Shown one piece after another: positions 4,970-32,000 of a stretch of DNA of 32,000 bases. The position numbers and the translations under genes were made by a program. Position 1 is the first letter of the stretch. The number at the start of each line of letters is the position of its first letter. This DNA comes from Erysipelotrichaceae bacterium. GTDB lineage: Bacteria > Bacillota_I > Bacilli_A > Erysipelotrichales > Erysipelotrichaceae. The notes beneath the pieces are model-generated. The model worked only from the letters and a program-made list of their open reading frames with translations. It was not told the DNA's origin and ran no database searches. Where the stretch lies: positions 150,001 to 182,000 of the forward strand of contig OY781039.1 of NCBI GenBank assembly GCA_963676105.1, written 5' to 3'.

Positions 4970-4976
4970 AAAACTT

Positions 4977-5008
4977 AAAATATTCCTTGATTATAAGGAA
5001 TATTTTTT
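4977..5008 (+). terminator. Intrinsic terminator after acyP
   Basis: AAATATTCCTT-gattat-AAGGAATATTT stem running into a T-run. Confidence 0.8.
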
Positions 5009-5050
5009 ATTTGAAATGATAAAATAGATTCACATATTAGAAGAGGTTTT

Positions 5051-15394: not shown

Positions 15395-15430
15395 AAAAAA
15401 ATCCCTTATTCACTTTAGAATGGGGGATTT
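15395..15430 (-). terminator. Intrinsic terminator at the end of the aromatic amino acid operon
   Basis: The minus strand reads AAAATCCCCcattctaaagtgaataaGGGATTTTTTT, a stem plus T-run immediately after the tyrA stop. Confidence 0.7.
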
Positions 15431-16275: not shown

Positions 16276-16276
16276 C

Positions 16277-18567: not shown

Positions 18568-18586
18568 AAGTTTTTTCCTCTTTTAT

Positions 18587-19603: not shown

Positions 19604-19608
19604 AAATT

Positions 19609-20046
19609 TTATCTCTTTTCTAATGTTTCTTTTAAGTAAACTAAGGCTGATTTATAGCCTTCAATACCTTCACCCGCAAAGGTTTTAAGACAAGCAAGTC
19701 CTGCATAGGATACATGTCTAAATTCTTCGCGTTGATAAATATCAGATAGATGAACTTCAATACATGGTAAGCCAACTGCTTTTAAAGCATCTAGTATTCC
19801 AATACTGGTATGCGTATAAGCAGCAGGATTAATAATAATCCCATCAAACACTTGATAAGCAGATTGAATCTTATCAATAAGTGCACCTTCATGGTTACTT
19901 TGATAAACTTCAATTTCAATATCATAATCAATCGCAGTTGATTGAACAAATTGTACTAAGTCTTGATAGGTTGTTTTCCCATATATTTCAGGTTCTCTAA
20001 TTCCTAACATATTTAAGTTGGGTCCATTAATGATTAAAAATTTCAT
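19609..20046 (-). CDS. aroQ: Type II 3-dehydroquinate dehydratase, 145 aa
   Basis: MKFLIINGPNLNMLGIREPEIYG is the classic AroQ N-terminus. AAGGAG SD. Overlaps the 3' end of the upstream aroE/aroK fusion by 20 nt. Confidence 0.9.
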   Translation of the reverse strand: MKFLIINGPNLNMLGIREPEIYGKTTYQDLVQFVQSTAIDYDIEIEVYQSNHEGALIDKIQSAYQVFDGIIINPAAYTHTSIGILDALKAVGLPCIEVHLSDIYQREEFRHVSYAGLACLKTFAGEGIEGYKSALVYLKETLEKR

Positions 20047-21277
20047 TGAATTTCTCCTTTATTTGACTGATGGCACTCTCAATATCCGAATTGTTTTCAA
20101 TTGTGATATGAGCTGCCTGTATATAGAGTGGATATCTCTTTTCATACATCGTTTTTAGAGCTTCCATATCTTTTGATAGTGGACGATGACCTTTTGTTTC
20201 TAATTGGTCAAGTTTACGATTGATGTAGAAAATAATTCCATTTTGTTGAAGTGCTCGAACATTGGCAGGGTTAAGGATACTACCACCACCGGTTGCGATC
20301 ACTAAGTTGGTTTGTTTACTTGTACTTAGGACAGCTTCATGTTCGAGTGACCTAAAGTAAGGTTCTCCATATTCCTTAAAGATTTCAGGAATACTAGCTT
20401 GTGCGTTCGTCTCAATGACTTCATCAATATCGATGAATTTTTTATTAAAGATTTTGCTTAACTCTAAACCAATCGTGGATTTGCCAGAACTTGGCATACC
20501 TATTAATACAATGTTTTGATAATCCTTGAGTAGGTTTTGATAGATAGGAAGAATCAGATCATCATCTAAGACTTTATCTAAAAATTTATCTGCCGCAAAT
20601 TTAGCTTGTGCCACTAACATGAGTAAACCATTTGCGGTTTTAATATTTTTAGCTTCAGCTTGAAGGATTAGGTTTGTTTTAAGTGGATTATAAATCACGT
20701 CTACACATGCTTCCAATTGTTTAAAGTTTTCTAAATCAATTGGGCTCATTTCATTATTGGGATACATCCCACTAGGGGTCGCATTGATAATGACTTGAGT
20801 GTTCATTTTTGTTAATGCAGTTTCATAATCAATAAAATTTCCATGTGCTTTACGCGAAACAATAAATACAGATTTTGCTTCTAGACTTTCACAAACAGCT
20901 TGTATGGTTTTTGAAGTCCCACCAGTTCCTAAAATCATAACGTGTTTATCTTTTAAGGAAATATTATTCACTTTAAGTGAATAGATAAAACCATAATAAT
21001 CTGTGTTATAAGCAATGAGTTTTCCATTTTTATTAACGATGGTATTAGATGCCCCAATTTTTTGAACAGATTCATCAAGTTCATCACAATAAGGAATGAC
21101 GGTTTGCTTATAAGGAATTGTTACATTGACCGCATTAAATGTCTTTTCAGTCATAAATGTATCCAATTCATCGATTGACATTGGCAATAAATCATATTGA
21201 TAATAGCCAAATTGTTCGTGTATACCTTTGGAAAAACTATGGGATAGCTTTTCACCAATTAGTCCATATATTGCCAT
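20027..21277 (-). CDS. aroE/aroK: Bifunctional shikimate dehydrogenase / shikimate kinase fusion, 416 aa
   Basis: The N-terminal ~250 aa have AroE motifs (GLIGEKLSHSFS, NVTIPYK, NTD, ILGTGGTSK). The C-terminal ~165 aa have AroK motifs (LIGMPSSGKSTIG Walker A, DID, GEPYFRSLE, TGGG). AGGAGG SD. Confidence 0.9.
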   Translation of the reverse strand: MAIYGLIGEKLSHSFSKGIHEQFGYYQYDLLPMSIDELDTFMTEKTFNAVNVTIPYKQTVIPYCDELDESVQKIGASNTIVNKNGKLIAYNTDYYGFIYSLKVNNISLKDKHVMILGTGGTSKTIQAVCESLEAKSVFIVSRKAHGNFIDYETALTKMNTQVIINATPSGMYPNNEMSPIDLENFKQLEACVDVIYNPLKTNLILQAEAKNIKTANGLLMLVAQAKFAADKFLDKVLDDDLILPIYQNLLKDYQNIVLIGMPSSGKSTIGLELSKIFNKKFIDIDEVIETNAQASIPEIFKEYGEPYFRSLEHEAVLSTSKQTNLVIATGGGSILNPANVRALQQNGIIFYINRKLDQLETKGHRPLSKDMEALKTMYEKRYPLYIQAAHITIENNSDIESAISQIKEKFNEIFNH

Positions 21278-21294
21278 ATGTCCTCCTTTTTAAA

Positions 21295-22398
21295 TTATTT
21301 TTGTGTCATCCACATGTAACCATAACGTTCAGCAAATAAGTCGACTAAACCAATCGCAATCATTGAGTCAACGACAACACGTGCTCTATGAATAATCGCT
21401 GGATCATGTCTTCCTTCAATTTGTAGAAGGGTATTTTCATGTGTTTGAATATTAACTGTTTCTTGTTTCTTATAAATTGATGAGGTTGGCTTAACCACTG
21501 ATTTAATCACTATTGGCATACCATTAGAGATGCCACCATTGATACCACCCATATGATTAGTCTTTGTTTTAACACCATCATCGTAAACAAATGGATCATT
21601 GGATTCTGATCCTTGCATATTCACTAAATCAAAGCCTGAACCAAATTCAATACCTTTGATGGCAGGGATTGAATAAATAAGTTGAGCTAGTCTACTTTCG
21701 ATTGAATTAAAGAAAGGTTCACCAATACCGGCTGGCATATTGAGTACAACTGATTCTAAGATACCACCAATACTATCGCCAACTGACTGCATCGTTTCAA
21801 TTCGTGAGACCATTTCAGTTTCGACTTCAGTATTTAATGTAGGGAAGTATTTGAGCGATAAGTCTTTGAGTTGTTTTTCTAAAACTTTTTCATCATTTGA
21901 GAAAGCTTCATCATGAATATCAGCTAATTGAGTGATATGAGTACCAATAACAATCCCTTTAGATTCTAAGATTTGGGTGCAGATCGCACCTGCCGCCACA
22001 AGTGGTGCAGTAATTCTACCAGAGAAGTGACCTCCACCACGATAATCTTGGAAACCTTGATATTTCACATGAGCTGTGTAATCAGCGTGTGATGGTCTCA
22101 TGAGATCTTTTGTTTTTTCATAATCTTTAGAATGTTGGCTTTTGTTTTCAATAATGATACTTAAAGGTGTACCAGTGGTATAACCGTTAAAATAACCACT
22201 TAAGATTCTAAACTCATCGGCTTCATGTCTTTGAGTTGATATTTTACCTTTAGGCTTACGTAGGTTTAATTTGGCGCGCACTAGATCTAAATCAAGTTCT
22301 ATCCCAGGTGCTAAGCCATCAATGACAACACCTATACCATCTGAATGAGATTCGCCAAATAGACTGATATGTAAGTTTTTTCCGAAACTGCTTTTCAT
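21295..22398 (-). CDS. aroC: Chorismate synthase, 367 aa
   Basis: FGESHS motif near the N-terminus, an RPSHAD motif and a typical length. AAGGAG SD. Confidence 0.9.
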   Translation of the reverse strand: MKSSFGKNLHISLFGESHSDGIGVVIDGLAPGIELDLDLVRAKLNLRKPKGKISTQRHEADEFRILSGYFNGYTTGTPLSIIIENKSQHSKDYEKTKDLMRPSHADYTAHVKYQGFQDYRGGGHFSGRITAPLVAAGAICTQILESKGIVIGTHITQLADIHDEAFSNDEKVLEKQLKDLSLKYFPTLNTEVETEMVSRIETMQSVGDSIGGILESVVLNMPAGIGEPFFNSIESRLAQLIYSIPAIKGIEFGSGFDLVNMQGSESNDPFVYDDGVKTKTNHMGGINGGISNGMPIVIKSVVKPTSSIYKKQETVNIQTHENTLLQIEGRHDPAIIHRARVVVDSMIAIGLVDLFAERYGYMWMTQK

Positions 22399-22410
22399 AA
22401 TTGGTCTCCT

Positions 22411-23418
22411 TTAGAGTTTTGCGATATAGGATTTGAGTTCTTCAAATTCAATATCTTTGAGTTCTGCTTTGCCACAATGTTTTACAGTGACAACAGTGAT
22501 ATTATTCTTAGTTGCTTTTTTATCCTTCAACATTAGTTGATAAATAGTATCTGAATCAAATTCAACAGAAGTTTTTAGACCCATTTTTTCATAAACTTTG
22601 ATGACTCGCTGTTTTAGATTTTCATCCTCCAACATCGCCAAACTACCAATCGCAACACATTCGCCATGATAGAGTTCACTTAAGTTATAGTAACTTTCAA
22701 TCGCATGACCTATGGTATGTCCAAAGTTTAAGATTTTACGTAAGTTTTGTTCTTTCTCATCGATTTGAACCACTTCTTTTTTAACTTGTAAAGCACGAAT
22801 AATAATTTCTTCTAAATGGTCCAGATAATTATCTTCTTCAAAAAGTTCAAAGAGTTTTTTATCATAGATTAATCCAGCTTTAACGGCTTCAACTAAGCCA
22901 GCCATTAGATGTCTTTGAGGTAAAGACTTAAGGGTGTCTGTATCAATAAAGACCATTTTAGGATGATAGAAGGCACCGACAATGTTTTTAACTTTATCGA
23001 CATTAATTGCTACTTTACCACCAATACTACTATCAATTTGTGATAGAGATGTCGTTGGGATTGAAATGAAATCAATGCCTCTCATATATGTCGCAGCTAC
23101 AAAACCTGATAAATCACCGATAACACCTCCACCTAAAGCAATGATAAGATCTTTGCGCGTGAATTTTAGTTCTAAGAGTTTTTTAAGTAGCGTTTCATAG
23201 ACTTCAAAACTTTTTGCACCTTCACCTTGATCAACAATGTGATAGTATGCATTTTCGCATTGGGAAAGAAGGGTATCTAAATAAGTTTTTGGTACACCAG
23301 TGTCTGTGATAATAAAAATGTTTCTCTGTAAATTAACATAACGAGAAACATTGTTTAGACAACCCGGTTCGATAAGAATATCGTAATCTGTGTGAGTTAA
23401 GTTGATGTTTAGTTTCAT
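22411..23418 (-). CDS. aroB: 3-dehydroquinate synthase, 335 aa
   Basis: GGGVIGDLSGF nucleotide-binding motif and the metal-binding region LNFGHTIGHAIE. The start lies 1 nt after the pheA stop. Confidence 0.9.
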   Translation of the reverse strand: MKLNINLTHTDYDILIEPGCLNNVSRYVNLQRNIFIITDTGVPKTYLDTLLSQCENAYYHIVDQGEGAKSFEVYETLLKKLLELKFTRKDLIIALGGGVIGDLSGFVAATYMRGIDFISIPTTSLSQIDSSIGGKVAINVDKVKNIVGAFYHPKMVFIDTDTLKSLPQRHLMAGLVEAVKAGLIYDKKLFELFEEDNYLDHLEEIIIRALQVKKEVVQIDEKEQNLRKILNFGHTIGHAIESYYNLSELYHGECVAIGSLAMLEDENLKQRVIKVYEKMGLKTSVEFDSDTIYQLMLKDKKATKNNITVVTVKHCGKAELKDIEFEELKSYIAKL

Positions 23419-23419
23419 G

Positions 23420-24505
23420 TTAATTTTCCTGCTTCGTATAAGAGCCTAGATATCTAAAGTCTTGGCAATATCGGCTAAAGTCTTCAAACAATGCAAAAGC
23501 TTCATCGCTTTGACGACTTCCTTCTAATGCAACGTAAAAGTAATATTTCCAAGGTTGGTTATGAATTGCGCGTGATTTTAAATTTTCCATGTTAAAACCA
23601 TGCTCACTAATCGCATTGATAACTTTAGCGAGTGAACCTGCGTGGTGATCTGTAGTAAAGATAAATGACATACGATTACCTTCGTCTGATCCCTTTTTAG
23701 AAATCACAATAAAACGGGTTGTATTATCTTCAGATGTATTTATATTTTTAACTAGCACGTCCAAGTTATAAAGTTCAGCAGTCTCTAATGATGCGACAGC
23801 AGCTTTAGATTTATCATTTGTTTCACTAACAAACTTAGCCGCTAGTGCTGTATTAGGATACGGAATGAGTTCAACGGGGTACATGCTTAAGAAATGTTTA
23901 GATTGATTTAGTGCTTGTTCATGTGAGTAAACTTGTTTAATATCTTTAATGTCTGCGCCTTTTACAGCTAATAAATTTTGATCAATTTTTAAATCATAAA
24001 TATCACTAATCATGACATCATATTTATATAGTAGGTCTAAAACTTCGCCGACTTCACCAGTGTATGAATTTTCAAAAGGCAAAACTGCTTTTTCGACTTC
24101 ATCATTTAAAACAGCCAAAACGACTTCTTCAAAAGTTTTATAAGACTTAACTTGTTGATCTTTAAATAATCGATTTAAAGCGATATGTGAGAAAGCACCT
24201 TCTGTTCCTTGAAAACCAATGACTTCTTTGGATGATAATTGATGCTGATGTTTGCGAGATAAGCTCATTAAATAAGTAATGAATTCAACATAAAAAGGCT
24301 CAAATTCTGCATGCTGAATATAAGCCTTATTTTTATCAATGACTTGTTTCTCGCGTGATGAATCTAAGACTTGAAGATTGTTAGCCATCTTGTAGGCAAC
24401 CACATCTTCTACAACTTGCATACGCTCTTCAAATAATCGAGCCATTTCTCGATCAATGATATCTATTTGAATGCGTGCTTCTTCAAGTGTCTTCATTTCA
24501 ATCAT
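23420..24505 (-). CDS. pheA: Bifunctional chorismate mutase / prephenate dehydratase (P-protein type, with C-terminal ACT-like region), 361 aa
   Basis: N-terminal CM_2 pattern (IDIIDREMARLFEERMQVV), then the PDT pattern (GFQGTEGAFSHIA ... TRF) and an ACT-like tail. It is the first gene of the operon. Confidence 0.85.
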   Translation of the reverse strand: MIEMKTLEEARIQIDIIDREMARLFEERMQVVEDVVAYKMANNLQVLDSSREKQVIDKNKAYIQHAEFEPFYVEFITYLMSLSRKHQHQLSSKEVIGFQGTEGAFSHIALNRLFKDQQVKSYKTFEEVVLAVLNDEVEKAVLPFENSYTGEVGEVLDLLYKYDVMISDIYDLKIDQNLLAVKGADIKDIKQVYSHEQALNQSKHFLSMYPVELIPYPNTALAAKFVSETNDKSKAAVASLETAELYNLDVLVKNINTSEDNTTRFIVISKKGSDEGNRMSFIFTTDHHAGSLAKVINAISEHGFNMENLKSRAIHNQPWKYYFYVALEGSRQSDEAFALFEDFSRYCQDFRYLGSYTKQEN

Positions 24506-24527
24506 TATTCCTTATTTGATTGTTAGA

Positions 24528-24536
24528 ATTATACCA
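24528..24536 (-). promoter_or_regulatory. Candidate extended -10 promoter (TGgTATAAT) of the aromatic amino acid operon
   Basis: The minus strand reads ttttaTGGTATAATtctaacaatcaaatAAGGAAtaATG. The -10 ends 22 nt before the pheA ATG, leaving room only for a short leader with an SD. Confidence 0.5.
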
Positions 24537-24708
24537 TAAAATGAAAAAAATACAGTTTTGTTTCTAAAAATTTTCATAAGTTTTCATATTCTGGACAAAT
24601 GACTCCATATCTTCGTCGTATCCATCTTTATTATACGCTTTGTTGTAGTCACTTTAATTGACTTTTAGATTTCAAAAATTCAAAGTAAAAACGAAAAGAG
24701 GGAAATCT

Positions 24709-25128
24709 ATGAAATTTGTGAAAAACGCTTTTGCTTATTTAATCTTTGGATTATTATCAGGTTTATATTTTAGAGAATTAACTCGTACATTAGATTTTGA
24801 AGGTTATACAGTGCTTTCAAGTTTACATACTCATGCGATTGTACTTGGAACTATGTTTTCCTTATTAATCCTTGTATTAGATAAAAATTATAATCTACAA
24901 AGTCGAATCAAATTTGATCTTGCTTGGATACTTTATGTCACTGGTGTTTGGTTTTTATTACTAATGAATACAATTAGAGGAACACTACAAGTTTTAAAAA
25001 CACAATTAAGTTCAAGTATGGATGGAATGATCGCTGGAATTGCTGGATTATCCCATATCTTATTAAGTGTAGCTCTTGTTTGGTTAATGTTAATTATCTA
25101 TCGATCTGTTAATGATGTAGAAAAATAA
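24709..25128 (+). CDS. DUF2871-like small integral membrane protein (4 TM), 139 aa
   Basis: The tracked ORF starts at TTG 24658, but ATG 24709 has a GAGGGA SD. The N-terminus MKFVKNAFAYLIFGLLSGLYFRELT and the HTH motif resemble DUF2871 family members from memory. Confidence 0.6.
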   Translation: MKFVKNAFAYLIFGLLSGLYFRELTRTLDFEGYTVLSSLHTHAIVLGTMFSLLILVLDKNYNLQSRIKFDLAWILYVTGVWFLLLMNTIRGTLQVLKTQLSSSMDGMIAGIAGLSHILLSVALVWLMLIIYRSVNDVEK

Positions 25129-25209
25129 AATAGACATATAAAGGACATATTTAAGCCACATTCATTATTTATACTTCATTTATGCTTAAGGCATGCAAGG
25201 AGAAAAATA

Positions 25210-25566
25210 ATGAAAAAAATATTAATTGTGTTTGGTACATTTGTTGCAGTTAGCTTAATCTTCTTAGGTTTAACAAACATGGATGAAATCAACGCCTATA
25301 TCAATAATGAAGAAGTGAGTGATGATACATTAGCTTTATCTGAAAACACTGAAAGTAACGAATGGTCATTAGATGAAGATGGCAGTGAAGTTGAAGCTTT
25401 TGTAGAAACTGAGAAAGGTTCAGAAAACTTTGCATCAACAGATGGAACAAGACCTGAAAGAGGTACACCACCAGAAGGATTTGATGGCGAAAGACCAACT
25501 CCTCCAGATGGCGAATTCCCTAGTGATGATACTTATACAGGAAGTACATCTACTACAACTGAATAA
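25210..25566 (+). CDS. Small secreted or membrane-anchored acidic, Pro-rich protein, 118 aa
   Basis: N-terminal hydrophobic signal/anchor (KKILIVFGTFVAVSLIFLGL), then an Asp/Glu-rich region and an imperfect repeat ERGTPPEGFDGERPTPPDGEFP. AAGGAG SD. Confidence 0.6.
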   Translation: MKKILIVFGTFVAVSLIFLGLTNMDEINAYINNEEVSDDTLALSENTESNEWSLDEDGSEVEAFVETEKGSENFASTDGTRPERGTPPEGFDGERPTPPDGEFPSDDTYTGSTSTTTE

Positions 25567-25570
25567 TCAA

Positions 25571-25597
25571 AAAGACGAGCAATCGTCTTTTATTTTA
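25571..25597. terminator. Bidirectional intrinsic terminator shared by the small secreted-protein gene (+) and the AOR operon (-)
   Basis: AAAGACG-agcaat-CGTCTTT with T-runs on both strands. The stem abuts the ThiF-like stop codon. Confidence 0.75.
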
Positions 25598-26261
25598 GGC
25601 TTATAAATTCTAGCTCTAATTCGTTTAAATCTAAATAGTAGAATCCATCAAAATCATTAAATTCATTAGATAATATTTTATAGACAAACATACTTTGTAT
25701 TTGAGCGCAGGTATTTGCGACCATCACAATGTTTCCTAAGTCTAACTCGGATCCTTTTTCAAAAGTATCACCAAGTTTTGATATATTTCGATGTTCATTT
25801 GTGGAAACAGTAATATAAGCAAACCAAGAGCTTATCATCCCAGAAACAATGGGAATATCTAAATTAAGTTTTTCAAATGCTAAAGATAAACTAAAGTTAT
25901 CTAAAGCATCAACGATGACATCAATATTTGAAAGTGGAAGTTTTAAATCATTGAAATCTAGATAATCCGTATAAGTGTGAATGATGCAAGCAGGATTAAT
26001 TTTTAAACATTCTTCCTTAATAACATCAATTTTATTTTGATTTAAATTTTCTGTGTTTGAAAAACACTGACGATTTAAATTTGTTTCATCAAAAACATCA
26101 TGATCAATAACTGTTAATTCCCCAACACCCAATCTCACTAAACTATGGGCAATATGGCCGCCTAATCCACCACAACCACAAATTAACACATGAGATTCTA
26201 AAAGTTTTTTTTGATTTAATTCAGATATAGTAGATTTATTTTTTAAATATCTTTTCATCAT
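25590..26261 (-). CDS. ThiF/MoeB/HesA-family E1-like adenylyltransferase, short form (223 aa)
   Basis: ICGCGGLGG nucleotide-binding loop, DETNLNRQ and VVDALDN motifs typical of E1-like enzymes. No CxxC zinc motifs and no rhodanese domain. The start overlaps the MoaD-like stop (ATGA, 4 nt). Confidence 0.8.
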   Translation of the reverse strand: MMKRYLKNKSTISELNQKKLLESHVLICGCGGLGGHIAHSLVRLGVGELTVIDHDVFDETNLNRQCFSNTENLNQNKIDVIKEECLKINPACIIHTYTDYLDFNDLKLPLSNIDVIVDALDNFSLSLAFEKLNLDIPIVSGMISSWFAYITVSTNEHRNISKLGDTFEKGSELDLGNIVMVANTCAQIQSMFVYKILSNEFNDFDGFYYLDLNELELEFISLK

Positions 26262-26479
26262 CCACCTGCAACAGGAGGGAAGAAAGCGACAATATCTTGA
26301 TCTTTTAAAATCGTATCAGCTTTATTATGACGACCATTCACTAAAAGAATTTGGACATCTTCCAAATTGATTTTCAAATGATCTAATAAGGCTTGTGGAG
26401 TAGGGAATTCTTTTTCATCTAAGAAAAGTATTTTTCCACGATTATCTCTAAAGTATGCGAATAGTCGGACTTCAACCAT
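26258..26479 (-). CDS. MoaD-like ubiquitin-fold sulfur carrier protein ending in Gly-Gly, 73 aa
   Basis: MVEVRLFAYFRD...DIVAFFPPVAGG* closely mirrors the MoaD N-terminus and its C-terminal VAFFPPVxGG tail. The tracked ORF starts at TTG 26491, but ATG 26479 has a GGAGG SD 5 nt upstream. Confidence 0.8.
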   Translation of the reverse strand: MVEVRLFAYFRDNRGKILFLDEKEFPTPQALLDHLKINLEDVQILLVNGRHNKADTILKDQDIVAFFPPVAGG

Positions 26480-26499
26480 AACAACCTCCAAGTATAAGA

Positions 26500-26520
26500 A
26501 AGGGAGATTTTCTCTCCCTT
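26500..26520 (-). promoter_or_regulatory. Intercistronic stem-loop between AOR and the MoaD-like gene
   Basis: The minus strand reads TGAtaaaattAAGGGAGAgaaaaTCTCCCTTtcttatacttGGAGGttgttATG. The 8-bp stem lies between the AOR stop and the MoaD SD. Confidence 0.5.
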
Positions 26521-26527
26521 AATTTTA

Positions 26528-28324
26528 TCATAGTAAATCTAAACGTTTGAGGGTTTCTTCCGTAGGGAAGGCATTGACCCAACCGCGTGCTTCATAATAT
26601 TGCGGTAAGGTAATATTTAGTTTACTTACTTCACCTTTTGAAGGACCATCTGGAATTGGTTCATTGAGAATACGTTTTGGTAAAGTATCATCTTCCGGTT
26701 TCATACCAGCTTCTTTATTAAATAAGCGTTCAATATTATAGATACGTTCACCAATTTCTAGAAGTTCTTCAACACTGTGATTTGTTCCTGTTGCGGCATT
26801 AATCATTGCTGCATATTCAGGTGCACCAAGTGCAAATGAAGTAAAGAGACACATACCGCTTGAATCGATAACAGCCGTTAAATCTTGGAAAATCTTAGTC
26901 CAAACAGCTTTATCATCAGTTGCGAAACGATCTAAAGGTTGAGGTAAACCTAAGACTTCAGGAGAAATCATGTAACCACGTACGTGACATGCACCGCGAT
27001 TAGAAGTTGCATAAGTAATCCCAATCCCTTGGATACCACGCGCATCATAGGCAGGCATTTCTTGTTTTTTAACAGACATTGAAAGTTCAGGAACACCGTA
27101 ATGTTCACATAAACGATAGGATCCTTGAGCCATGAGTTTAGCAAGCATACTTTCTTGAGTCCCCATGCGTTTAGTCCATTCAATGATGGCTTTTGAACTA
27201 CCCCACACAAGTGGAACACCATCACAATCTTCGTCTTTAATGTAACCTTTTTGGTAAAGTTCCATTGCAGCAGCAATGGTCGTAGGCGCGCCAATGGCAT
27301 CTAGCCCCATTTCATTAGCATAGTAATTAGCTTCATTAATCGCTTCTAAATCATCAACTGCACAGTTAGCGCCATATGCCCAAATAGGTTCATATTCTGG
27401 ACCGCCAACCACTTTATCACCGAGTTTAATAACACGGCCACAACCGATTGGACATCTATGACAGAAACCTTGTTTAACTAAGTGTTTTTCTTGTAAGGTT
27501 TCACCAGAAATATTATCGGCATCAGCAAATTGTGATTCTTGCCAGTTTTTAGTAGGGAAGGATCCAATATTATTGATGATATTAACTAAAACAGCTGTAC
27601 CATAGGTTGGTAAACCTTGACCAGTAACTCCATTTTCACGAATGAGCTTTAATCCGTTAGTTACTGCTTCTCTTAATGCATCTTTGTCTTCAGGTTCAAT
27701 AACATTGCGTTTCGATGAACAAACAATTGCTTTAAGTTTTTTAAAACCCATAACAGCTCCAACACCACCACGACCAGCAGCACGATCTGCTTCATTCATA
27801 ATGGCTGCAATTAAGGATAGATTTTCACCAGCAGGACCAATATTAACAACAGAAGCATCTTTGCCATATTCAGCTTTGAGTTCTTCTTCAACAACTTCGG
27901 ATGTTTTACCCCATAAATCAGCTGCATCTTTTAATTCAACATGATCATCATCAATGACCATATAAACTGGTTTATCAGAAGCACCTTCAACGATTAATGC
28001 ATCATATCCAGCGTATTTAAGGCGAGCACCCCAAACACCTCCAGAATTTGAACTAGCAATCATGTTGTTGAGTGGTGATTTTGTCACAACCATATAACGA
28101 CCACCAGTAGGAACGTTGACACCAGTGAGTGGACCATTAATGAAAACTAGCTTATTATCTGCTGATAATGGTTCAACTTTGGCAACGCCTTCATCCATTA
28201 GTATTTTGGTACCTAGACCACGACCACCAATGAATTTTCGTGCTAATTTTTCATCCAAAGCTTCGGTTTTAATTGATCCATCACTTAGATTAACTCTTAG
28301 CATCTTTAAATTATAACTTGACAT
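26528..28324 (-). CDS. aor: Aldehyde:ferredoxin oxidoreductase family protein (tungsto/molybdo-bis-pyranopterin + [4Fe-4S] enzyme), 598 aa
   Basis: The N-terminal AFOR_N pattern (LRVNLSDGSI...KFIGGRGLG), the cluster motif CHRCPIGCGR and a later SGMCLF cysteine match the AOR family. AGGAGG SD. Confidence 0.9.
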   Translation of the reverse strand: MSSYNLKMLRVNLSDGSIKTEALDEKLARKFIGGRGLGTKILMDEGVAKVEPLSADNKLVFINGPLTGVNVPTGGRYMVVTKSPLNNMIASSNSGGVWGARLKYAGYDALIVEGASDKPVYMVIDDDHVELKDAADLWGKTSEVVEEELKAEYGKDASVVNIGPAGENLSLIAAIMNEADRAAGRGGVGAVMGFKKLKAIVCSSKRNVIEPEDKDALREAVTNGLKLIRENGVTGQGLPTYGTAVLVNIINNIGSFPTKNWQESQFADADNISGETLQEKHLVKQGFCHRCPIGCGRVIKLGDKVVGGPEYEPIWAYGANCAVDDLEAINEANYYANEMGLDAIGAPTTIAAAMELYQKGYIKDEDCDGVPLVWGSSKAIIEWTKRMGTQESMLAKLMAQGSYRLCEHYGVPELSMSVKKQEMPAYDARGIQGIGITYATSNRGACHVRGYMISPEVLGLPQPLDRFATDDKAVWTKIFQDLTAVIDSSGMCLFTSFALGAPEYAAMINAATGTNHSVEELLEIGERIYNIERLFNKEAGMKPEDDTLPKRILNEPIPDGPSKGEVSKLNITLPQYYEARGWVNAFPTEETLKRLDLL

Positions 28325-28345
28325 TTATGTACCTCCTCATGTCAC

Positions 28346-28374
28346 AAAAAAATCAAGGGACGTGACCCTTGATT
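28346..28374 (-). terminator. Intrinsic terminator forming the expression platform of the riboswitch
   Basis: The minus strand reads AATCAAGGG-tcacgt-CCCTTGATT followed by TTTTTTT. It lies 20 nt upstream of the AOR SD. Confidence 0.8.
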
Positions 28375-28500
28375 AAGTGTTGTTTCGGGAAGGGTCACGC
28401 TCTGAAATCAGCGTCCCTTTCCAAGATGGGAGGTTGAACTGTCACCAATTCAGCCTATCGGGCTATATAACTCTCTAGAGTTATTATAGTCTCGGAACTA
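28346..28500 (-). promoter_or_regulatory. Moco/Wco (molybdenum/tungsten cofactor) riboswitch candidate in the AOR leader
   Basis: The minus-strand leader carries the conserved Moco-motif blocks in order: CCGAG, a hairpin, AGCC-cgata-GGCTG, ACCTCCC, GGAAAGG. Alternative antiterminator and terminator helices follow. Recognised from memory of the Rfam Moco RNA motif; no covariance model was run. Confidence 0.7.
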
Positions 28501-28505
28501 TTTAT

Positions 28506-28534
28506 ATTATAAAGCGCTTACATTCACAATGCAA
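28506..28534 (-). promoter_or_regulatory. Sigma-70-type promoter of the riboswitch-AOR operon
   Basis: Minus strand: TTGCAT (28534..28529), 17-nt spacer, TATAAT (28511..28506). Confidence 0.65.
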
Positions 28535-28723
28535 TCTTGTTTTTAAAAAATTAGGAAAAACACAATTAAAATCATATATATAAGGTGTAGATAAACATAC
28601 TGATTGTTCCACCATTAAGTTGATTGGAGTTATGGATATATTAATACAAGTATTAATATTAATCTTTTCTGTCTAAGGCGTTGTCTATTCCATCTTTTAT
28701 AAGAAGAAGTAGATTAAACAAAT

Positions 28724-28764
28724 AAAACACTCTTTCTAAGTTACACAGCCTAGGAGAGTGTTTT
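28724..28764 (-). terminator. Possible terminator / 3' stem-loop downstream of the radical SAM gene
   Basis: 10-bp arms AAAACACTCT...AGAGTGTTTT with a 21-nt loop. On the minus strand it is followed by the T-rich ttttatttgttt. Confidence 0.4.
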
Positions 28765-28844
28765 CAAATTTTGAACGCTTTCTTATTTAATGTATACCTG
28801 TTTTTCAATTTTTCCTAACAATTAGCCAATGAAGGAATATGAAA

Positions 28845-29900
28845 TCAAATACACTGTACAAAATCTCTTGTCCATAAACAATCTGCACATGATGGATTTT
28901 GTCCTTTACAATCGCAAAGTGAATCATTTACATAGTCGCAACAATTAACATAGTCACAATCAGGACAAGAAGGGAATTGATTGCGTAAGTTTTGAATTCT
29001 TAGATCTGTATAAAGTTTTGAGTGCCAAATATCGTTGATGCTAGATTCAGTTATGTTTCCATAACTAACTTCATAGACTTGTTTGCGACGTCCAAATACA
29101 TATTCAATACTAGGATGGGCAAAGCGATAACACGGCGCAATATGGCCATCACTATTAATAGTCATTGTTCCATCATATACAAAGCGACATTTACGCTCTG
29201 TTTTAAGTTCAATGGCTGGAAATTTGATTTGAAGTTTAGAAGACATCGCTTTATTTAACCATTTATTTCGATATGACTTCATACGTGTATTATCGTAAAG
29301 TTTATATAAAATTTTATCTTTATCAAGTTCATTTTGAGGTAATAAATTAGAAAGAATGATCTGCATATAACCCATTGAAGATAAACGTGGTATGAGTGTT
29401 TCAATCTCATCAACGTTGTATTCACTAATCACTGCTTGAGCAATCACAAAAGGATGATCTCGTTTTAGTTCATTGCGTCTTTTGACCAATTTTCGAACAT
29501 TTTCTTCCATGATTGAAAAATCAAAACCACGAATGATTTTAAAGGTGTCTTCATGACCATCAACAGAAATGACAACACGATCAAATTTTGAAGCTAAGAC
29601 TTCAATGATTTCATCTGACCAATGATAAGCATTTGATGTAATGGTTAATTTTACATCTGCTAATAAATCAACCCATTCTAAAAACTTGGGATGAAAAGTC
29701 GGTTCTCCGATTCCACCTAAAACAATTTCTTCTAAGCTCTCTATGTCGTGTAAATGATTATTTGTTTTATCAAATAGCTCATCACTCATCTGTGTTTGCG
29801 CAAAGTCCCAGTTTTGTCTGAAACAACTTGTACAATTTAAATTACATCGTTGAGTGAGTTCTAAATAAACCTTTTTTATAGGTACATCATCTTCATGCAT
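28845..29900 (-). CDS. Radical SAM protein with Cys-rich SPASM-like C-terminal domain; resembles the AOR-associated tungsten cofactor oxidoreductase radical SAM maturase family
   Basis: CNLNCTSC (CX3CX2C) at residues 19-26. The C-terminal cysteine clusters (CRFV...APCYRF...CPDCDYVNCCDYVNDSLCDCKGQNPSCADCLW) fit auxiliary Fe-S binding. It sits directly beside AOR. Confidence 0.8.
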   Translation of the reverse strand: MHEDDVPIKKVYLELTQRCNLNCTSCFRQNWDFAQTQMSDELFDKTNNHLHDIESLEEIVLGGIGEPTFHPKFLEWVDLLADVKLTITSNAYHWSDEIIEVLASKFDRVVISVDGHEDTFKIIRGFDFSIMEENVRKLVKRRNELKRDHPFVIAQAVISEYNVDEIETLIPRLSSMGYMQIILSNLLPQNELDKDKILYKLYDNTRMKSYRNKWLNKAMSSKLQIKFPAIELKTERKCRFVYDGTMTINSDGHIAPCYRFAHPSIEYVFGRRKQVYEVSYGNITESSINDIWHSKLYTDLRIQNLRNQFPSCPDCDYVNCCDYVNDSLCDCKGQNPSCADCLWTRDFVQCI

Positions 29901-29906
29901 AGATTT

Positions 29907-29936
29907 ATTTTAGACTTTTATTTAAGAAAATGTAAA
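29907..29936 (-). promoter_or_regulatory. Candidate promoter of the radical SAM gene with the start codon 6 nt after the -10 (leaderless-type)
   Basis: Minus strand: TTTACA (29936..29931), 18-nt spacer, TAAAAT (29912..29907), then aaatct, then ATG at 29900. No Shine-Dalgarno. Confidence 0.45.
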
Positions 29937-29951
29937 GGCTTTCAATTTCTG

Positions 29952-29960
29952 TGTTAGAAT
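29952..29960 (+). promoter_or_regulatory. Candidate extended -10 (TGtTAGAAT) for the moeA genes
   Basis: tgt+tagaat at 29952..29960, about 30 nt upstream of ATG 29991. No clear -35. Confidence 0.35.
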
Positions 29961-29990
29961 TTAAGTAGTGTTTCGGGGGTTTTTAAAACC

Positions 29991-31223
29991 ATGATTAAGT
30001 CAATAAACCTTTTGTCTGTTGTCAGTGTGGACGAAAGTGTCAAACAATGCACTGATTTTATAGTCAAACATCATTTAAAACGAAAAGAAACTGTTAATAT
30101 TGCAGATTCTTTTTCACGTATTTTATCAAGCAATATTATTTCACAAGAAAACGTACCTAATTTTAATCGTAGTACCGTAGATGGCTATGCTGTAATTGCT
30201 TCAGAGACCTTTGGGGCAAGTGAGGCAATGCCATCTGTATTACGTTATGGTGGAGAAATCCAAATGGGTGAAAATACCTCATTGGAATTAAAAAAAGGTG
30301 AATGTATTAAAGTCATGACTGGTGCAATGTTACCTAAGGGTGCTAATGCGGTTGTGATGATAGAGTATAGTGAACTGTTTGGTGAAAATATCCTCTTTTA
30401 TAAAGCTGTATCTGAGAATGAAAATGTTATTTGGTTAGGTGATGATGCGAAAGAGAATGAGATTTTATTTCTTCCTTATCATTCAATGCATCACTCAGAC
30501 ATTGGTTTTTGTGCAGCCTGTGGTGTAAATGAGATTGAAGTTTTTTCACCACTTAAAGCTTTAGTTATTTCAACCGGTGAAGAAGTTATAGAAGTTGAAA
30601 AGAAAGCACAAATTGGTCAAGTGCATGATGTGAATATGCCTGTAGTCAAAAGTATGTTGAATGATTATGGTTTTCAGGTTGTAGAAAGCATGCTTATTCA
30701 GGATGATCAAGTAAAACTACAAAACACCTTAATTAAATATCGAGAACTTGTGGATTTAATCATCATTTCAGGTGGTAGTTCTCAAGGTGAAAAAGATTAT
30801 ACAGCTGAGGTCATCAATTATTGCGGTGACCCAGGTGTATTTGTTCATGGTGTTGCGATTAAACCAGGTAAACCTACAATTCTTGGCGCATCACAAGATT
30901 GTTTAATGGTGGGATTACCTGGACAACCGGTTAGTGCTTTAACTGTTTTGCGTGAAGTCATTTTAAAAGCTTATGATTTAGCGTACCAACAAAAACCTTT
31001 AAAGATACAAGCAAAACTCACAAACAATATTATTGGCTCACCTGGTCGTGAAACAACGATTTATGTTCAATTAAAAGAAGATAATGGAAATAAATTGGCA
31101 CTACCACTTTATACAAAGTCAGGTTTAATTTCGACCCTTAAAAAGGCAGATGCCTATGTGATTATTCCACGTAATCATGAGGGTTATCCTAAAGATAGTA
31201 TTGTGGATTGTTATATATGGTAA
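29991..31223 (+). CDS. moeA: Molybdopterin molybdenum/tungsten-transferase MoeA family protein, 410 aa
   Basis: MoeA motifs NFNRSTVDGYAV, ISGGSSQGEKDY and IKPGKPT. Confidence 0.85.
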   Translation: MIKSINLLSVVSVDESVKQCTDFIVKHHLKRKETVNIADSFSRILSSNIISQENVPNFNRSTVDGYAVIASETFGASEAMPSVLRYGGEIQMGENTSLELKKGECIKVMTGAMLPKGANAVVMIEYSELFGENILFYKAVSENENVIWLGDDAKENEILFLPYHSMHHSDIGFCAACGVNEIEVFSPLKALVISTGEEVIEVEKKAQIGQVHDVNMPVVKSMLNDYGFQVVESMLIQDDQVKLQNTLIKYRELVDLIIISGGSSQGEKDYTAEVINYCGDPGVFVHGVAIKPGKPTILGASQDCLMVGLPGQPVSALTVLREVILKAYDLAYQQKPLKIQAKLTNNIIGSPGRETTIYVQLKEDNGNKLALPLYTKSGLISTLKKADAYVIIPRNHEGYPKDSIVDCYIW

Positions 31224-31235
31224 GGGGAGGTTAAA

Positions 31236-32000
31236 ATGGGACGAAATCTATATTTAAAAAGTGTTAGCTTAGAAGAAGCACATGAAAAATTTTTTAGATT
31301 AAAACAAACTCAAATAAAATCAGTTCAAACTGAAATTATACAAACAAAAGATGCTTATGATCGTGTTTTAAGTAAGGCAATTTTTGCGAATAAAAGTGTA
31401 CCTGCTTTTCCTAGTGCAGCCATGGATGGGATATCAGTTAAATCATCAATCACTCAAAAAGCAAGCGATCATCAACCACTATTGCTTAAAACAGATGATT
31501 ATCAAGTCATTGATACAGGTGATATCATCAAAGCACCTTATGATGCCGTAATTATGGCTGAGGATTGTATTGAAACTGAAGAAGGCATAAAAATTATTAA
31601 AGCTGTTGTCCCATATGAAAATGTGAGACCAATTGGTGAAGATGTAGTACAAGGTGAGCTAATATTTCCGATGGAACATGTTTTAGATGTGATGGATTTA
31701 TCGGTCTTAATCGCAAGTCACGTAAAAACTGTAACGGTCTATAAACAAGTAAAACTTGGCATTATTCCAAGTGGGGATGAAATAAAGAATATTGATGATT
31801 TATCAGATGAGGCAGATATTATTGAATCTAATTCCTATTTATTTGCTTCTTGGGCTAAAAAAGCTAAAGCAATCCCAACAACTTATCCAATTGTACCTGA
31901 TATTCCAGAAAAAATTGAAGCTATTTTAAAACAAGCATTAAAAGAAAATGATGTCGTTTTAATTAATGCTGGCTCTAGTGCAGGGCGTGATGATTATACG
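31236..32000 (+). CDS. moeA: Second MoeA family protein, N-terminal 255 codons (continues beyond the window)
   Basis: Absent from the ORF track because it is open at the window end. Hand translation from ATG 31236 (GGGGAGG SD) gives MGRNLYLKSVSLEEAHEKFF...VPAFPSAAMDGISV...NAGSSAGRDDYT, with no stop through 32000. Confidence 0.75.
   Translation, partial: MGRNLYLKSVSLEEAHEKFFRLKQTQIKSVQTEIIQTKDAYDRVLSKAIFANKSVPAFPSAAMDGISVKSSITQKASDHQPLLLKTDDYQVIDTGDIIKAPYDAVIMAEDCIETEEGIKIIKAVVPYENVRPIGEDVVQGELIFPMEHVLDVMDLSVLIASHVKTVTVYKQVKLGIIPSGDEIKNIDDLSDEADIIESNSYLFASWAKKAKAIPTTYPIVPDIPEKIEAILKQALKENDVVLINAGSSAGRDDYT

Follow-up and report, generated by a model that had tools for sequence, protein, structure and literature searches.

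The closest described systems are gene neighbourhoods in which a MoaD-like protein is encoded beside aldehyde:ferredoxin oxidoreductase (AOR). A role in making molybdopterin for the tungsten cofactor of AOR was proposed for MoaD/MoeB clusters linked to AOR (Iyer, Burroughs and Aravind 2006, PMC1779556), and the MoaD-like protein is named WorX in a 2026 WOR classification, with a predicted role in pterin biosynthesis (PMC13328260). In T. kodakarensis, deletion of ublC, which lies between aor and a radical SAM gene, decreased AOR activity to 54% and abolished FOR activity in pyruvate medium (PMC11323500). MoeA can have paralogues that are specialised for W or for Mo (PMC13197769). Moco-riboswitch RNAs that are devoid of the P3 stem correlate with tungsten-cofactor genes (PMC2408646), and Tuco riboswitches precede the WOR and tup operons of E. 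limosum (PMC11725836). A Moco/MOSC/AOR cluster of Dielma fastidiosa was proposed to have been acquired horizontally from Clostridia (PMC6147048).

The window (the whole 32,000-nt stretch of DNA that was analysed) carries at its right end a region that is probably the visible half of a tungsten-cofactor/AOR island, conserved and mobile by horizontal transfer, in an uncultured Erysipelotrichaceae-like bacterium. An RF01055 aptamer of the tungsten type, without P3, and an intrinsic terminator precede an aor-moaD(worX)-E1 operon; a TIGR04317-like radical SAM/SPASM (rSAM) gene, monocistronic, is found upstream of aor on the same strand; a divergent moeA1-moeA2 operon extends past the edge of the window. 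The six genes and the RNA element listed by a first-pass annotation of this DNA were found by Pfam, NCBIfam and RF01055 searches at or near the positions that it gave (Table 1). Its proposal of an undescribed system does not hold for the genomic association, which had already been published (Iyer 2006, TIGR04317, WorX 2026, T. kodakarensis 2024). The new elements are the predicted ON riboswitch platform and the lack of MoaE in the 1.36 Mb searched around the related clusters. All six genes are under purifying selection relative to L083, a related locus colinear with window positions 20842-31998 at 79% nucleotide identity (dN/dS 0.04-0.16; AOR, 0.058; MoaD-like protein, 0.042; E1, 0.13; rSAM, 0.057). 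The neighbouring shikimate genes display similar values (0.10-0.12).

Table 1. Features of the tungsten-cofactor/AOR region, given in window positions.
Feature	Position	Strand	Size or extent	Family or basis
Short, zinc-less ThiF/MoeB-type adenylyltransferase (E1)	25590..26261	-	223 aa, or 222 aa from second ATG	PF00899
MoaD-like sulfur-carrier protein (WorX)	26258..26479	-	73 aa from ATG	PF02597
Aldehyde:ferredoxin oxidoreductase (AOR)	26528..28324	-	598 aa	AFOR_N + AFOR_C
Radical SAM/SPASM protein	28845..29900	-	351 aa	TIGR04317
MoeA1, metal insertase	29991..31223	+	410 aa	MoeA_N, MoCF_biosynth, MoeA_C (Pfam)
MoeA2	31236..32000	+	first 255 aa only, cut by window end	
Divergent promoter region, rSAM/moeA1 intergenic	29901..29990	.	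90 bp	
Moco/Tuco riboswitch aptamer without P3 stem	28399..28509	-		RF01055
Intrinsic terminator closing the aor-moaD-E1 operon	25570..25591	-		terminator scan + fold
Stem-loop, aor/moaD intergenic, poor U-tract	26500..26520	-		terminator scan + fold
Terminator hairpin of the riboswitch platform + U7 run	28344..28374	-	hairpin 28351-28374	
Predicted antiterminator	28360..28400	-		constrained folding
Putative promoter	28506..28534	-		read from sequence
Terminator-like hairpin after the rSAM gene	28724..28764	-		fold

AOR is assigned to the single-subunit (Class I) tungsten bis-pyranopterin/[4Fe-4S] enzymes (Pfam: AFOR_N, 263 bits; AFOR_C, 474 bits; structure matches: PDB 9g7j, 715 bits; 1aor, 647 bits). 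The cysteines are Cys288, Cys291 and Cys295, which form a CxxCxxxC motif (288-295), and Cys492. The MoaD-like protein matches ThiS (PF02597, 45.2 bits) and scores under the TIGR01687 and TIGR01682 cutoffs. It ends in ...PPVAGG, with a GG ending found in 74 of the 76 cluster homologues, and a start at a TTG (26491) would lengthen its ORF. The stop codon (TGA) and the E1 start codon share a 4-nt overlap (ATGA), which indicates translational coupling. E1 matches ThiF (PF00899, 122.8 bits), scores under every NCBIfam equivalog cutoff and contains no CxxC motif in its sequence. Its adenylation motifs (RY, GCGGLGG, D.DvFd.NLNRQ and DAlD) are conserved in 41 cluster-linked E1s; the short E1 has no conserved cysteine beyond the nucleotide-binding loop.

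A single operon, transcribed from one promoter and bounded by terminators, had been proposed for these three genes. The terminators were found; the one that closes the operon (-8.9 kcal/mol, z -3.3) is shared with a convergent + strand ORF ending at 25566. The putative promoter combines TTGCAT, a 17-nt spacer and TATAAT. Its -10 box is perfect (28511-28506), but its -35 box matches only 3 of the 6 consensus positions and the promoter was therefore not listed by the scan; the 5′ strand of P1 would adjoin the transcription start. The stem-loop between aor and moaD (-13.3 kcal/mol, z -2.0), which has no good U-tract, is a further caveat; it is possibly an attenuator or an mRNA stabiliser that sets the AOR:MoaD/E1 ratio.

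The aptamer matches the full RF01055 model (positions 1-135, P3 deleted) with 32.3 bits and an E-value of 2.7e-5. This is under the gathering score of 36, which is why the default scan missed it. Seven relatives carry an RF01055 match above the threshold (42-58 bits) in the same rSAM/aor gap, so the aptamer of the window is considered real. At least 35 loci have the aptamer core directly 5′ of AOR. Where a long cluster runs in one direction, the riboswitch separates the biosynthesis genes from AOR, which indicates that AOR, rSAM, MoaD and E1 form their own regulatory unit.

Downstream of the aptamer, the terminator hairpin (arms AAUCAAGGG and CCCUUGAUU) is followed by the U7 run. In constrained folding, GCGUGACCCUU (28400-28390) pairs with AAGGGUCACGU (28370-28360) to give an antiterminator, whose C-rich arm can alternatively pair with the P1 3′ strand GGAAAGGGAC. 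When the P1 3′ strand is free, the terminator state is better (-28.5 vs -25.6 kcal/mol); when it is locked, the antiterminator is better (-18.4 vs -15.3 kcal/mol). The same preference is found in 10 of 14 related leaders; in the other 4 it fails at the minimum-free-energy level. Across the 14 leaders, the antiterminator helix is 89% paired, vs at most 51% when slid, with one compensatory change (C-G to U-A). One C-rich element is contested by two G-rich ones, the P1 strand and the terminator arm, which leaves ON as the only logic, and an ON switch is predicted. The aptamers that precede tupA in one related locus (L043) have the opposite, OFF, layout.

The best family of the rSAM protein is TIGR04317, named "tungsten cofactor oxidoreductase radical SAM maturase", i.e. 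for the AOR context (344.6 bits, below the cutoff of 380; second-best NCBIfam family, 168 bits). Some above-cutoff members of this family are found in arsenic-resistance operons, with no AOR nearby. The protein carries a C19x3C23x2C26 motif and 11 C-terminal cysteines, 9 of which are invariant. Its AF2 model (pLDDT 91.6) has SkfB, SuiB, CteB and anSME as closest folds. The terminator-like hairpin located 3′ of the gene (-15.5 kcal/mol, z -2.1) is followed by UUUUAUUUGUUU, so that the gene is monocistronic and not controlled by the riboswitch. No riboswitch is present in the gap between rSAM and moeA1.

The best NCBIfam model of MoeA2 is NF011068, a 647-aa MoeA fusion. In L083, MoeA2 is a 631-aa MoeA-PBP_like fusion (PBP_like, 211 bits) followed by moaA, whose product has an N-terminus 61% identical to that of the MoaA of L001. 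In distant Erysipelotrichaceae relatives that carry the divergent operon, moaC, a MOSC gene and mogA/moaB come next, and most of them add tupA, tupB, tupC and a second MOSC gene (full clusters: L001/L006, L003, L004, L007, L008, L016, L020). From L083 and about eight distant relatives, the moeA operon of the window is inferred to continue with moaA, moaC, MOSC, mogA/moaB, tupABC and the second MOSC gene. The two MoeAs would thus head a general operon of tungsten-cofactor biosynthesis and uptake. The island would then go beyond a finishing step and cover tungstate import, the pathway to the cofactor, MoaE excepted, and an enzyme that uses the cofactor.

The island had been called self-contained, which must be abandoned: MoeA2 is cut by the window end and the operon runs on in relatives (moaA in L083). 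The statement that MoaA/C, MogA and a tungstate transporter are missing from the window is literally true but merely reflects the point at which the window ends. A finishing module of six genes that includes the MoeAs is likewise not retained, as these head the general operon in L083 and in the distant relatives. Conservation of the six-gene neighbourhood was examined in 80 species-level loci found through rSAM. The genes found beside rSAM encode AOR (73 of 80 loci), MoaD (73 of 80) and E1 (47 of 80), and the commonest order is AOR>rSAM>MoaD>E1 (37 loci). The conserved unit is therefore AOR, rSAM, MoaD and E1, and the MoeAs lie outside it. E1 is absent nearby in 26 of the 73 MoaD-bearing loci; the short E1 is replaced in L001 and L007 by a canonical Zn-type enzyme encoded on the opposite strand.

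In the proposed mechanism, which draws on family knowledge, TupABC would import tungstate and MoaA/MoaC would produce cPMP. The short E1 would adenylate the GG terminus of the MoaD-like protein, which, once thiocarboxylated, would donate the sulfurs of the dithiolene. Pterin adenylation and tungsten insertion would fall to MogA/MoaB and the two MoeAs, one with a fused PBP-like domain that would bind oxyanions, and apo-AOR would receive the bis-pyranopterin cofactor. Ligand-stabilised P1 would hold its 3′ strand, so that the C-rich element is freed and pairs with the 5′ arm of the terminator; aor, hence moaD and E1, would be transcribed only in the presence of the pterin ligand. AOR, its cofactor or the MoaD-like protein would be the target of a radical step by the rSAM enzyme, whose fold is that of peptide/protein modifiers. 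Several points weigh against this scheme: the genes past base 32000 are taken from relatives, the RF01055 and TIGR04317 scores are both under curated cutoffs in the window, and the ON prediction hangs on a difference of about 3 kcal/mol. In addition, an ON switch that senses the finished cofactor creates a bootstrapping problem if both moaD and E1, which it controls, are needed to make this cofactor. This problem speaks for a late function of moaD and E1 that is specific to AOR, or for a ligand that is a precursor.

MoaE is the normal partner of MoaD. The window and the 1.36 Mb surrounding the 80 related clusters yielded none (phmmer, best E-value 2; query: an E. coli MoaE sequence that matches PF02391 at 131.7 bits), so that sulfur insertion as drawn has no catalytic subunit, except if a moaE gene is present at another site. 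No biochemical precedent is known for a MOSC-based or rSAM-based MPT synthase. It is nevertheless conceivable, if unlikely, that molybdopterin synthesis is independent of MoaE and that the thiocarboxylate of the MoaD-like protein, activated by E1, delivers sulfur to cPMP on another scaffold: the MOSC protein encoded right after moaC, the rSAM enzyme or apo-AOR. MoaE is undetected in clusters that otherwise hold MoaA, MoaC, MoaD, E1, MogA and MoeA, and moaC is followed by a MOSC gene in nearly every full cluster. In Dehalobacter, which is devoid of MoaD and MoaE, clustered MOSC proteins were suggested to replace MPT synthase (PMC4751268), and the T. kodakarensis authors speculate that pterin sulfuration may follow binding to the target enzyme (PMC11323500). 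However, a moaE gene may just be located elsewhere in the genome, the MOSC genes are beyond the window, and the Archaea and Proteobacteria with AOR-linked MoaD do have MoaE, sometimes in the same neighbourhood (PMC1779556).

The model of the first-pass annotation is a poor candidate. AOR, MoaD-GG, E1, rSAM and the paired MoeAs would form a dedicated module that finishes or inserts the cofactor after the general pathway (for example by AOR-specific sulfuration, metal choice or cofactor modification), with a separate housekeeping MoaD/MoaE/MoeB set elsewhere. AOR, rSAM, MoaD and E1 do travel together and are parted from the biosynthesis genes by the riboswitch, whose predicted ON logic regulates moaD and E1 together with the consumer of the cofactor. 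T. kodakarensis has a second MoaD/E1 pair (UblB/TK2117) and target-specific Ubls (PMC11323500), and in Azoarcus MoaD is fused to the AOR C-terminus (PMC1779556). Against it, the MoeAs head the general operon, outside the four-gene unit, and no Moco genes other than those of the island were seen in the Erysipelotrichaceae relatives inspected or are reported in Dielma; the MoaD loci without a nearby E1 and the Zn-type substitutes also count against this model. Far less probable is a MoaD-like protein that acts mainly as a ubiquitin-like modifier or chaperone, with E1 attaching it to AOR or enzymes of the pathway in the manner of archaeal SAMPylation. The GG terminus and E1 are present, UblC of T. 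kodakarensis forms protein conjugates (PMC11323500) and the Azoarcus fusion suggests a physical association of MoaD and AOR (PMC1779556). The neighbourhood maps inspected display no JAB-type deconjugating peptidase or E2-like gene beside the core genes, the short E1 is devoid of a conserved cysteine outside the nucleotide-binding loop, and both the MPT-derived signal and enzyme activity fall upon ublC deletion, in agreement with sulfur carriage (PMC11323500).

The tungsten-cofactor/AOR island that is favoured here resembles the Iyer 2006 (PMC1779556) and WorX (PMC13328260) neighbourhoods: a GG MoaD strictly beside AOR, often with a MoeB-like E1 and cofactor genes, a sporadic mobile spread across phyla and a predicted pterin supply for the AOR tungsten cofactor. 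It differs by the additional rSAM gene, the Tuco riboswitch, the zinc-less 223-aa E1 and the lack of MoaE, an occasional neighbour in the 2006 account. A single cluster of MoaA, MoaC, MoeA, MoeB, MogA, MOSC and AOR is reported for Dielma fastidiosa, of the same class (Erysipelotrichia; PMC6147048), a likeness that rests on the published description, Dielma being outside the 80 loci. The same three families are adjacent in tk1066 (aor)-tk1065 (ublC)-tk1064 (radical SAM) of T. kodakarensis and in aor-cmo of Pyrococcus; in T. kodakarensis, however, the archaeal E1 is encoded elsewhere, further functionally redundant Ubls exist and there is no riboswitch. The rSAM protein shares CX3CX2C and a Cys-rich SPASM domain with TIGR04317 and with the solved SPASM maturases (anSME, SkfB, SuiB, CteB, PqqE) and, as in TIGR04317, adjoins AOR, although it scores below the cutoff of this family; like anSME, it has a fold resembling that of peptide/protein-modifying SPASM enzymes without an N-terminal RiPP-recognition domain. 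As in the E. coli MoaD-MoaE/MoeB system, a beta-grasp GG carrier is combined with a ThiF-fold adenylyltransferase that keeps the adenylation motifs. Unlike in E. coli, MoaE is not nearby, the carrier is under the MoaD equivalog cutoffs, E1 is devoid of the two CxxC zinc motifs of MoeB and about 25 aa shorter, and moaD is translationally coupled to E1, an arrangement that Iyer et al. call rare for MoaD/MoeB. The aptamer has the conserved core of the P3-less Tuco variant (RF01055; Regulski 2008; E. limosum WOR1/tupABC, 2024), without P3 and 5′ of a tungsten-enzyme gene; its platform is a terminator/antiterminator, predicted to be ON, whereas the E. coli riboswitch that was tested turns translation OFF.

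The six genes that the first-pass annotation had joined into an AOR maturation island lie at the positions it gave them and were confirmed by domain and family matches in the window (table). MoeA_N, MoCF_biosynth and MoeA_C are all found in MoeA1, and the first two in MoeA2 before the window end (Pfam); the MoeA2 orthologue of L083, the colinear relative, has all three MoeA domains and a PBP_like domain (Pfam). The AOR matches AFOR_N at 263.2 bits and AFOR_C at 474.5 bits, both above the Pfam cutoffs. It scores 715 bits against PDB 9g7j and 647 bits against the P. furiosus AOR (1aor), and it keeps the [4Fe-4S] ligands Cys288/291/295/492 (CxxCxxxC and a distal Cys). Judged from its sequence, it is an orthodox member of the tungsten AOR family. 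The dN/dS values, computed for the window versus L083, indicate that all six genes are functional.

Features of the window, with dN/dS (window versus L083) and number of loci, out of 80, in which a gene of this type lies within 10 kb of the rSAM gene
Feature	Position	Strand	Description	dN/dS	Loci (of 80)
MacB-like genes	8221-11541	-	tandem pair (663 and 442 aa); in each product an ABC ATPase is fused to an FtsX-type permease
Shikimate operon	15430-24505	-	aromatic amino-acid/shikimate operon, complete (tyrA, aroA, aroQ, aroE-aroK, aroC, aroB, pheA)	0.10-0.12 (flanking genes)
DAHP synthase paralogues	17551-18567; 18587-19603		two, in tandem, in the shikimate operon
aroE-aroK	20027-21277		gene fusion in the shikimate operon
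DUF2871 and 118-aa genes	24658-25566	+	membrane protein, then acidic Pro/Thr-rich protein, apparently secreted, no family match
Terminator	25570-25591		terminator scan
E1	25590-26261	-	ThiF-fold, 223 aa	0.13	47
MoaD-like	26258-26479	-	ThiS/MoaD-fold; 73 aa from ATG, 77 aa from upstream TTG; C-terminus VAGG	0.042	73
AOR	26528-28324	-	598 aa, both AFOR domains	0.058	73
Terminator	28351-28374		followed by U7; terminator scan
RF01055	28399-28509	-	Moco/Tuco riboswitch aptamer, permissive scan
Putative promoter	28511-28506		perfect -10 TATAAT, -35 weak; start placed at 5′ strand of P1
rSAM hairpin	28724-28764		terminator-like; fold analysis
rSAM	28845-29900	-	radical SAM/SPASM; TIGR04317 best family by far	0.057
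MoeA1	29991-31223	+	complete MoeA	0.16	34
MoeA2	from 31236	+	second MoeA, continues past window end	0.11
MoaA					30
MoaC					29
MOSC					28
Tup					~21

The 80 loci were obtained by scanning one genome per species with an rSAM alignment; they represent Clostridia, Erysipelotrichia, Bacteroidales, Spirochaetes, Thermodesulfobacteria and others. AOR>rSAM>MoaD>E1 is the commonest order (37 loci); rSAM>AOR>MoaD>E1, found in the window, is the Erysipelotrichaceae variant. Many Clostridia carry all these genes as a single string, tupAB-mogA-moeA1-moeA2-moaA-moaC-MOSC-[riboswitch]-AOR-rSAM-MoaD-E1, and the riboswitch divides the AOR/rSAM/MoaD/E1 module from the biosynthesis genes. By the counts over the 80 loci, there is a conserved AOR-linked module, as had been proposed, but it consists of four genes (AOR, rSAM, MoaD, E1) and not of six, the MoeA genes being outside. 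One Erysipelotrichaceae genome (L002/L013, 11050-11244) has a 64-aa ankyrin-repeat ORF between rSAM and riboswitch/AOR. A Christensenellales MAG (L018, 4470-6309) has an AOR frame in at least five fragments, from decay or from an assembly error, while rSAM, MoaD and MoeA beside it are intact.

The island had also been called self-contained, and this is contradicted by what follows moeA2 in the relatives. Exact-sequence look-ups with the window rSAM, MoaD (77 and 73 aa), AOR and MoeA1 gave no match. A protein search with the window E1 gave a 100%-identical protein on a 1.96-Mb contig, presumably from the source genome, and a 72%-identical E1 on L083. It is colinear with the window over 20842-31998, at 79% nucleotide identity, and has the gene order moaA(partial)-moeA2-moeA1 / rSAM-aor-moaD-E1-116aa-DUF2871-pheA-aroB-aroC. 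Its 631-aa MoeA2 carries PBP_like (211 bits) at the C-terminus, and moeA2 is followed by a gene for a MoaA N-terminus that shares 61% identity with the MoaA of L001, a locus from a more distant member of the family. In more distant Erysipelotrichaceae (L001/L006, L003, L004, L007, L008, L016, L020), the gene order of the divergent operon is moeA1-moeA2(PBP)-moaA-moaC-MOSC-mogA/moaB, and most of these loci then have tupA, tupB and tupC with another MOSC gene behind them. It is literally correct that the window has no MoaA/C, MogA or tungstate transporter; as a real absence this fails, since the operon runs on in relatives and the apparent lack is thus an artefact of the window end. For the MoeA2 fragment, the metagenome-contig scan gave no relative and the protein search nothing closer than 52%. 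From gene order, both MoeA genes are part of the operon for general cofactor biosynthesis and uptake.

On its other side the island directly adjoins the shikimate operon, and the same flank is found in L083. The DUF2871 and 118-aa genes are kept beside E1 in L083 and in another related locus, L084. The MacB-like genes match the TupC seed weakly but are unrelated to tungstate transport.

The moaD stop codon and the E1 start codon overlap (ATGA), so that the two genes are translationally coupled. Between aor and moaD there is a hairpin without a U-tract. The rSAM gene is followed by its own terminator-like hairpin, which places it outside riboswitch control. The default Rfam scan (gathering threshold, 36 bits) gave no RF01055 in the window. 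A permissive scan gave a match of 32.3 bits (E 2.7e-5) over the full model (1-135), with the P3 columns deleted. RF01055 is found above threshold (42-58 bits) in the same rSAM/aor gap of seven relatives, and at least 35 related loci have the aptamer core immediately in front of AOR; these syntenic elements show that the window element is real. It fits the Tuco subclass by its missing P3 stem and its tungsten-cofactor gene context. Moco RNAs without P3 have been described as the class tied to the tungsten cofactor (PMC2408646), and in E. limosum such riboswitches precede WOR and tup operons (PMC11725836).

The RNA downstream of the aptamer can form three pairings, each of which excludes the others: the 3′ strand of P1 (GGAAAGGGAC) with a C-rich element (..GUGACCCUUCC); the same C-rich element with AAGGGUCAC, the 5′ arm of the terminator; and the terminator itself. 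In constrained folding, the terminator state is preferred when the P1 strand is free (-28.5 vs -25.6 kcal/mol) and the antiterminator when P1 is locked, as if ligand-bound (-18.4 vs -15.3 kcal/mol). The outcome with free and locked P1 is the same in 10 of 14 related leaders. Over these 14 leaders the antiterminator helix is 89% paired, vs at most 51% in slid controls, and shows one compensatory change (C-G to U-A); pairs were counted on a MAFFT alignment with columns defined on L007, window-based columns having a 4-nt indel. The ON/OFF logic was judged on the 14 leaders; an automated classification of 41 aptamer hits was discarded, the first U-run having been misassigned. Since one C-rich strand is contested by two G-rich strands, only an ON design is possible, and from folding and covariation the window riboswitch is predicted to be an ON switch. 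Should this hold, moaD and E1 would share their control with the enzyme that consumes the cofactor and not with the genes that make it, which is awkward if their role is in making the ligand. It would hint that bootstrapping is leaky, that the two act late and specifically for AOR, or that the ligand is a precursor. In Caldanaerobacter subterraneus, two tandem P3-less Moco/Tuco aptamers (L043, 12031-12116 and 13680-13771) precede a tupA-mogA-moeA operon; they have the usual OFF-type layout (antiterminator when P1 is free), opposite to the AOR leaders. In L010 the minus strand has a fluoride riboswitch (RF01734, 43.9 bits) at 17466-17536, some 4 kb downstream of its AOR-MoaD cluster.

The MoaD-like protein matches PF02597 at 45.2 bits and stays below the MoaD equivalog cutoffs (TIGR01682, 31.9 bits, cutoff 66; TIGR01687, 39.3 bits, cutoff 49.5). 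A GG C-terminus is near-universal among its homologues. No fusion partner was found: among 1.84 billion representatives, the best 150 of 260 matches are all stand-alone proteins of 51-124 aa. E1 matches PF00899 at 122.8 bits, has RY, GCGGLGG, NLNRQ and DALD, and is likewise below the MoeB/ThiF equivalog cutoffs (best NF006395, 106.5 bits vs cutoff 159). Two CxxC pairs form a structural zinc site in E. coli MoeB and ThiF. Whereas MoeB and ThiF have these zinc motifs, most cluster-linked E1s have about 225 aa and lack them while keeping the adenylation motifs; no CxxC motif is found in the window E1 or in most cluster-linked short E1s. In L001 (13342-14160, minus strand) and L007 (13341-14105, minus strand), the short zinc-less E1 is absent and a canonical MoeB/ThiF-type E1 (254-272 aa, two CxxC motifs) lies on the opposite strand, convergent to moaD. 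L003, L008 and L010-L013 have no nearby E1 at all. Within the four-gene module, no protein evolves faster than E1: identity between window and L083 is 72% for E1 vs 93% for AOR, and between window and L004 38-39% vs 83%. The C-terminal half of the window E1 deviates from the family consensus. Decay of E1 was considered and rejected, given orthologues at 88%, 72% and 52% identity and its dN/dS against L083.

MoaD normally works with MoaE as MPT synthase, and in E. coli the moaD-moaE genes come after moaC. Neither the window nor the 1.36 Mb around the 80 clusters (83 loci) gave a MoaE, the best matches being at E 2 (phmmer) and E 0.16 (tblastn). The query was an E. coli MoaE seed, which matches PF02391 at 131.7 bits. 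A small MOSC-domain gene lies right after moaC, in the slot of E. coli moaD-moaE, and another MOSC gene is the last of the tup operon; the two slots are at 4870-5313 and 1895-2353 in L001 and recur in L003-L008, L016, L020 and most Clostridia loci. A 147-aa gene after moaC in L001 was considered as a divergent MoaE and rejected; it has no Pfam hit, and at the counterpart position L003 has a MOSC protein. Dehalobacter genomes have been reported to lack MoaD and MoaE, with MOSC proteins suggested as substitutes (PMC4751268).

That the island encodes a MoaE-independent route to the pyranopterin dithiolene in this lineage, with an ON riboswitch sensing a pterin intermediate, is considered unlikely. 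The zinc-less E1 would then activate the AOR-linked MoaD-like protein, and this would pass its sulfur to cPMP bound on a scaffold other than the canonical one: apo-AOR, the TIGR04317 radical SAM/SPASM enzyme, or the MOSC protein whose gene stands in for moaD-moaE behind moaC. The ON riboswitch would sense the pterin intermediate and turn on sulfuration and apo-enzyme together.

The rSAM protein, which adjoins AOR in the window, scores 344.6 bits against TIGR04317, under the NCBIfam cutoff (380), the next family being at 168 bits. It has CX3CX2C at C19/C23/C26, a SPASM domain (50.2 bits) and eleven C-terminal Cys, nine of them invariant. Its AlphaFold model is confident (pLDDT 91.6). The closest solved folds are the SPASM/Twitch enzymes SkfB, SuiB, CteB, anSME, ChlB and PqqE (TM-scores about 0.6), with MoaA lower. 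The enzymes that it resembles modify peptides or proteins. No N-terminal RiPP-recognition domain was found in rSAM and no small ORF nearby, which favours a protein, either AOR or the MoaD-like one, or the cofactor as its substrate. A literature search on the TIGRFAM name and on 'cofactor modifying protein' found no papers. Matches to TIGR04317 above cutoff (389-398 bits) also occur without AOR within 10 kb, in L049 (10001-11056), L050 (10001-11056), L061 (9944-11041) and L040 (10001-11041). In genomes of Clostridium and Lacrimispora the gene is part of an arsenic-type operon, whose other products are ArsC, an ArsM methyltransferase, an acetyltransferase like ArsN1 and a MarR-like regulator rich in Cys; in L040 a gene for a hybrid-cluster protein is about 3.3 kb away. 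The TIGR04317 family may not be AOR-specific.

Tungsten enzymes of the AOR family, which can reduce carboxylic acids without prior activation and remove toxic aldehydes, are relevant to gut microbiology and biocatalysis. Active enzymes of this family are hard to obtain in heterologous hosts, one reason being the poorly understood maturation of the tungsten cofactor. In relatives the compact Erysipelotrichaceae island has some 16 genes and covers uptake, pathway, enzyme, riboswitch, MoaD/E1 and rSAM; it is a candidate for a portable, nearly minimal set with which active AOR could be reconstituted. Its interest rests on the predicted ON switch, the rSAM chemistry and a possible MoaE-independent pathway. 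It sharpens two questions, the role of the AOR-linked radical SAM enzyme and molybdopterin synthesis in Firmicutes that seemingly lack MoaE.

The first-pass annotation had regarded the system as undescribed; the association is already in the literature. AOR-linked MoaD/MoeB genes were proposed to make molybdopterin for the AOR tungsten cofactor (Iyer 2006, PMC1779556), and the aorD and aorE products of A. aromaticum are MoaD-like 'putative maturation factors'. The MoaD-like protein is named WorX, 'function unknown', in the 2026 WOR classification (PMC13328260). The aor-ublC-rSAM cluster of T. kodakarensis has been dissected genetically; deletion of ublC lowered AOR activity to 54% and abolished FOR activity on pyruvate medium (PMC11323500). 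MoeA paralogues of M. extorquens are specialised for W or Mo (PMC13197769), and a Moco/MOSC/AOR cluster of Dielma fastidiosa (Erysipelotrichia) was reported as a horizontal transfer from Clostridia (PMC6147048). The window was thus correctly read as a cluster of an already known kind, and is one further example of the published association.
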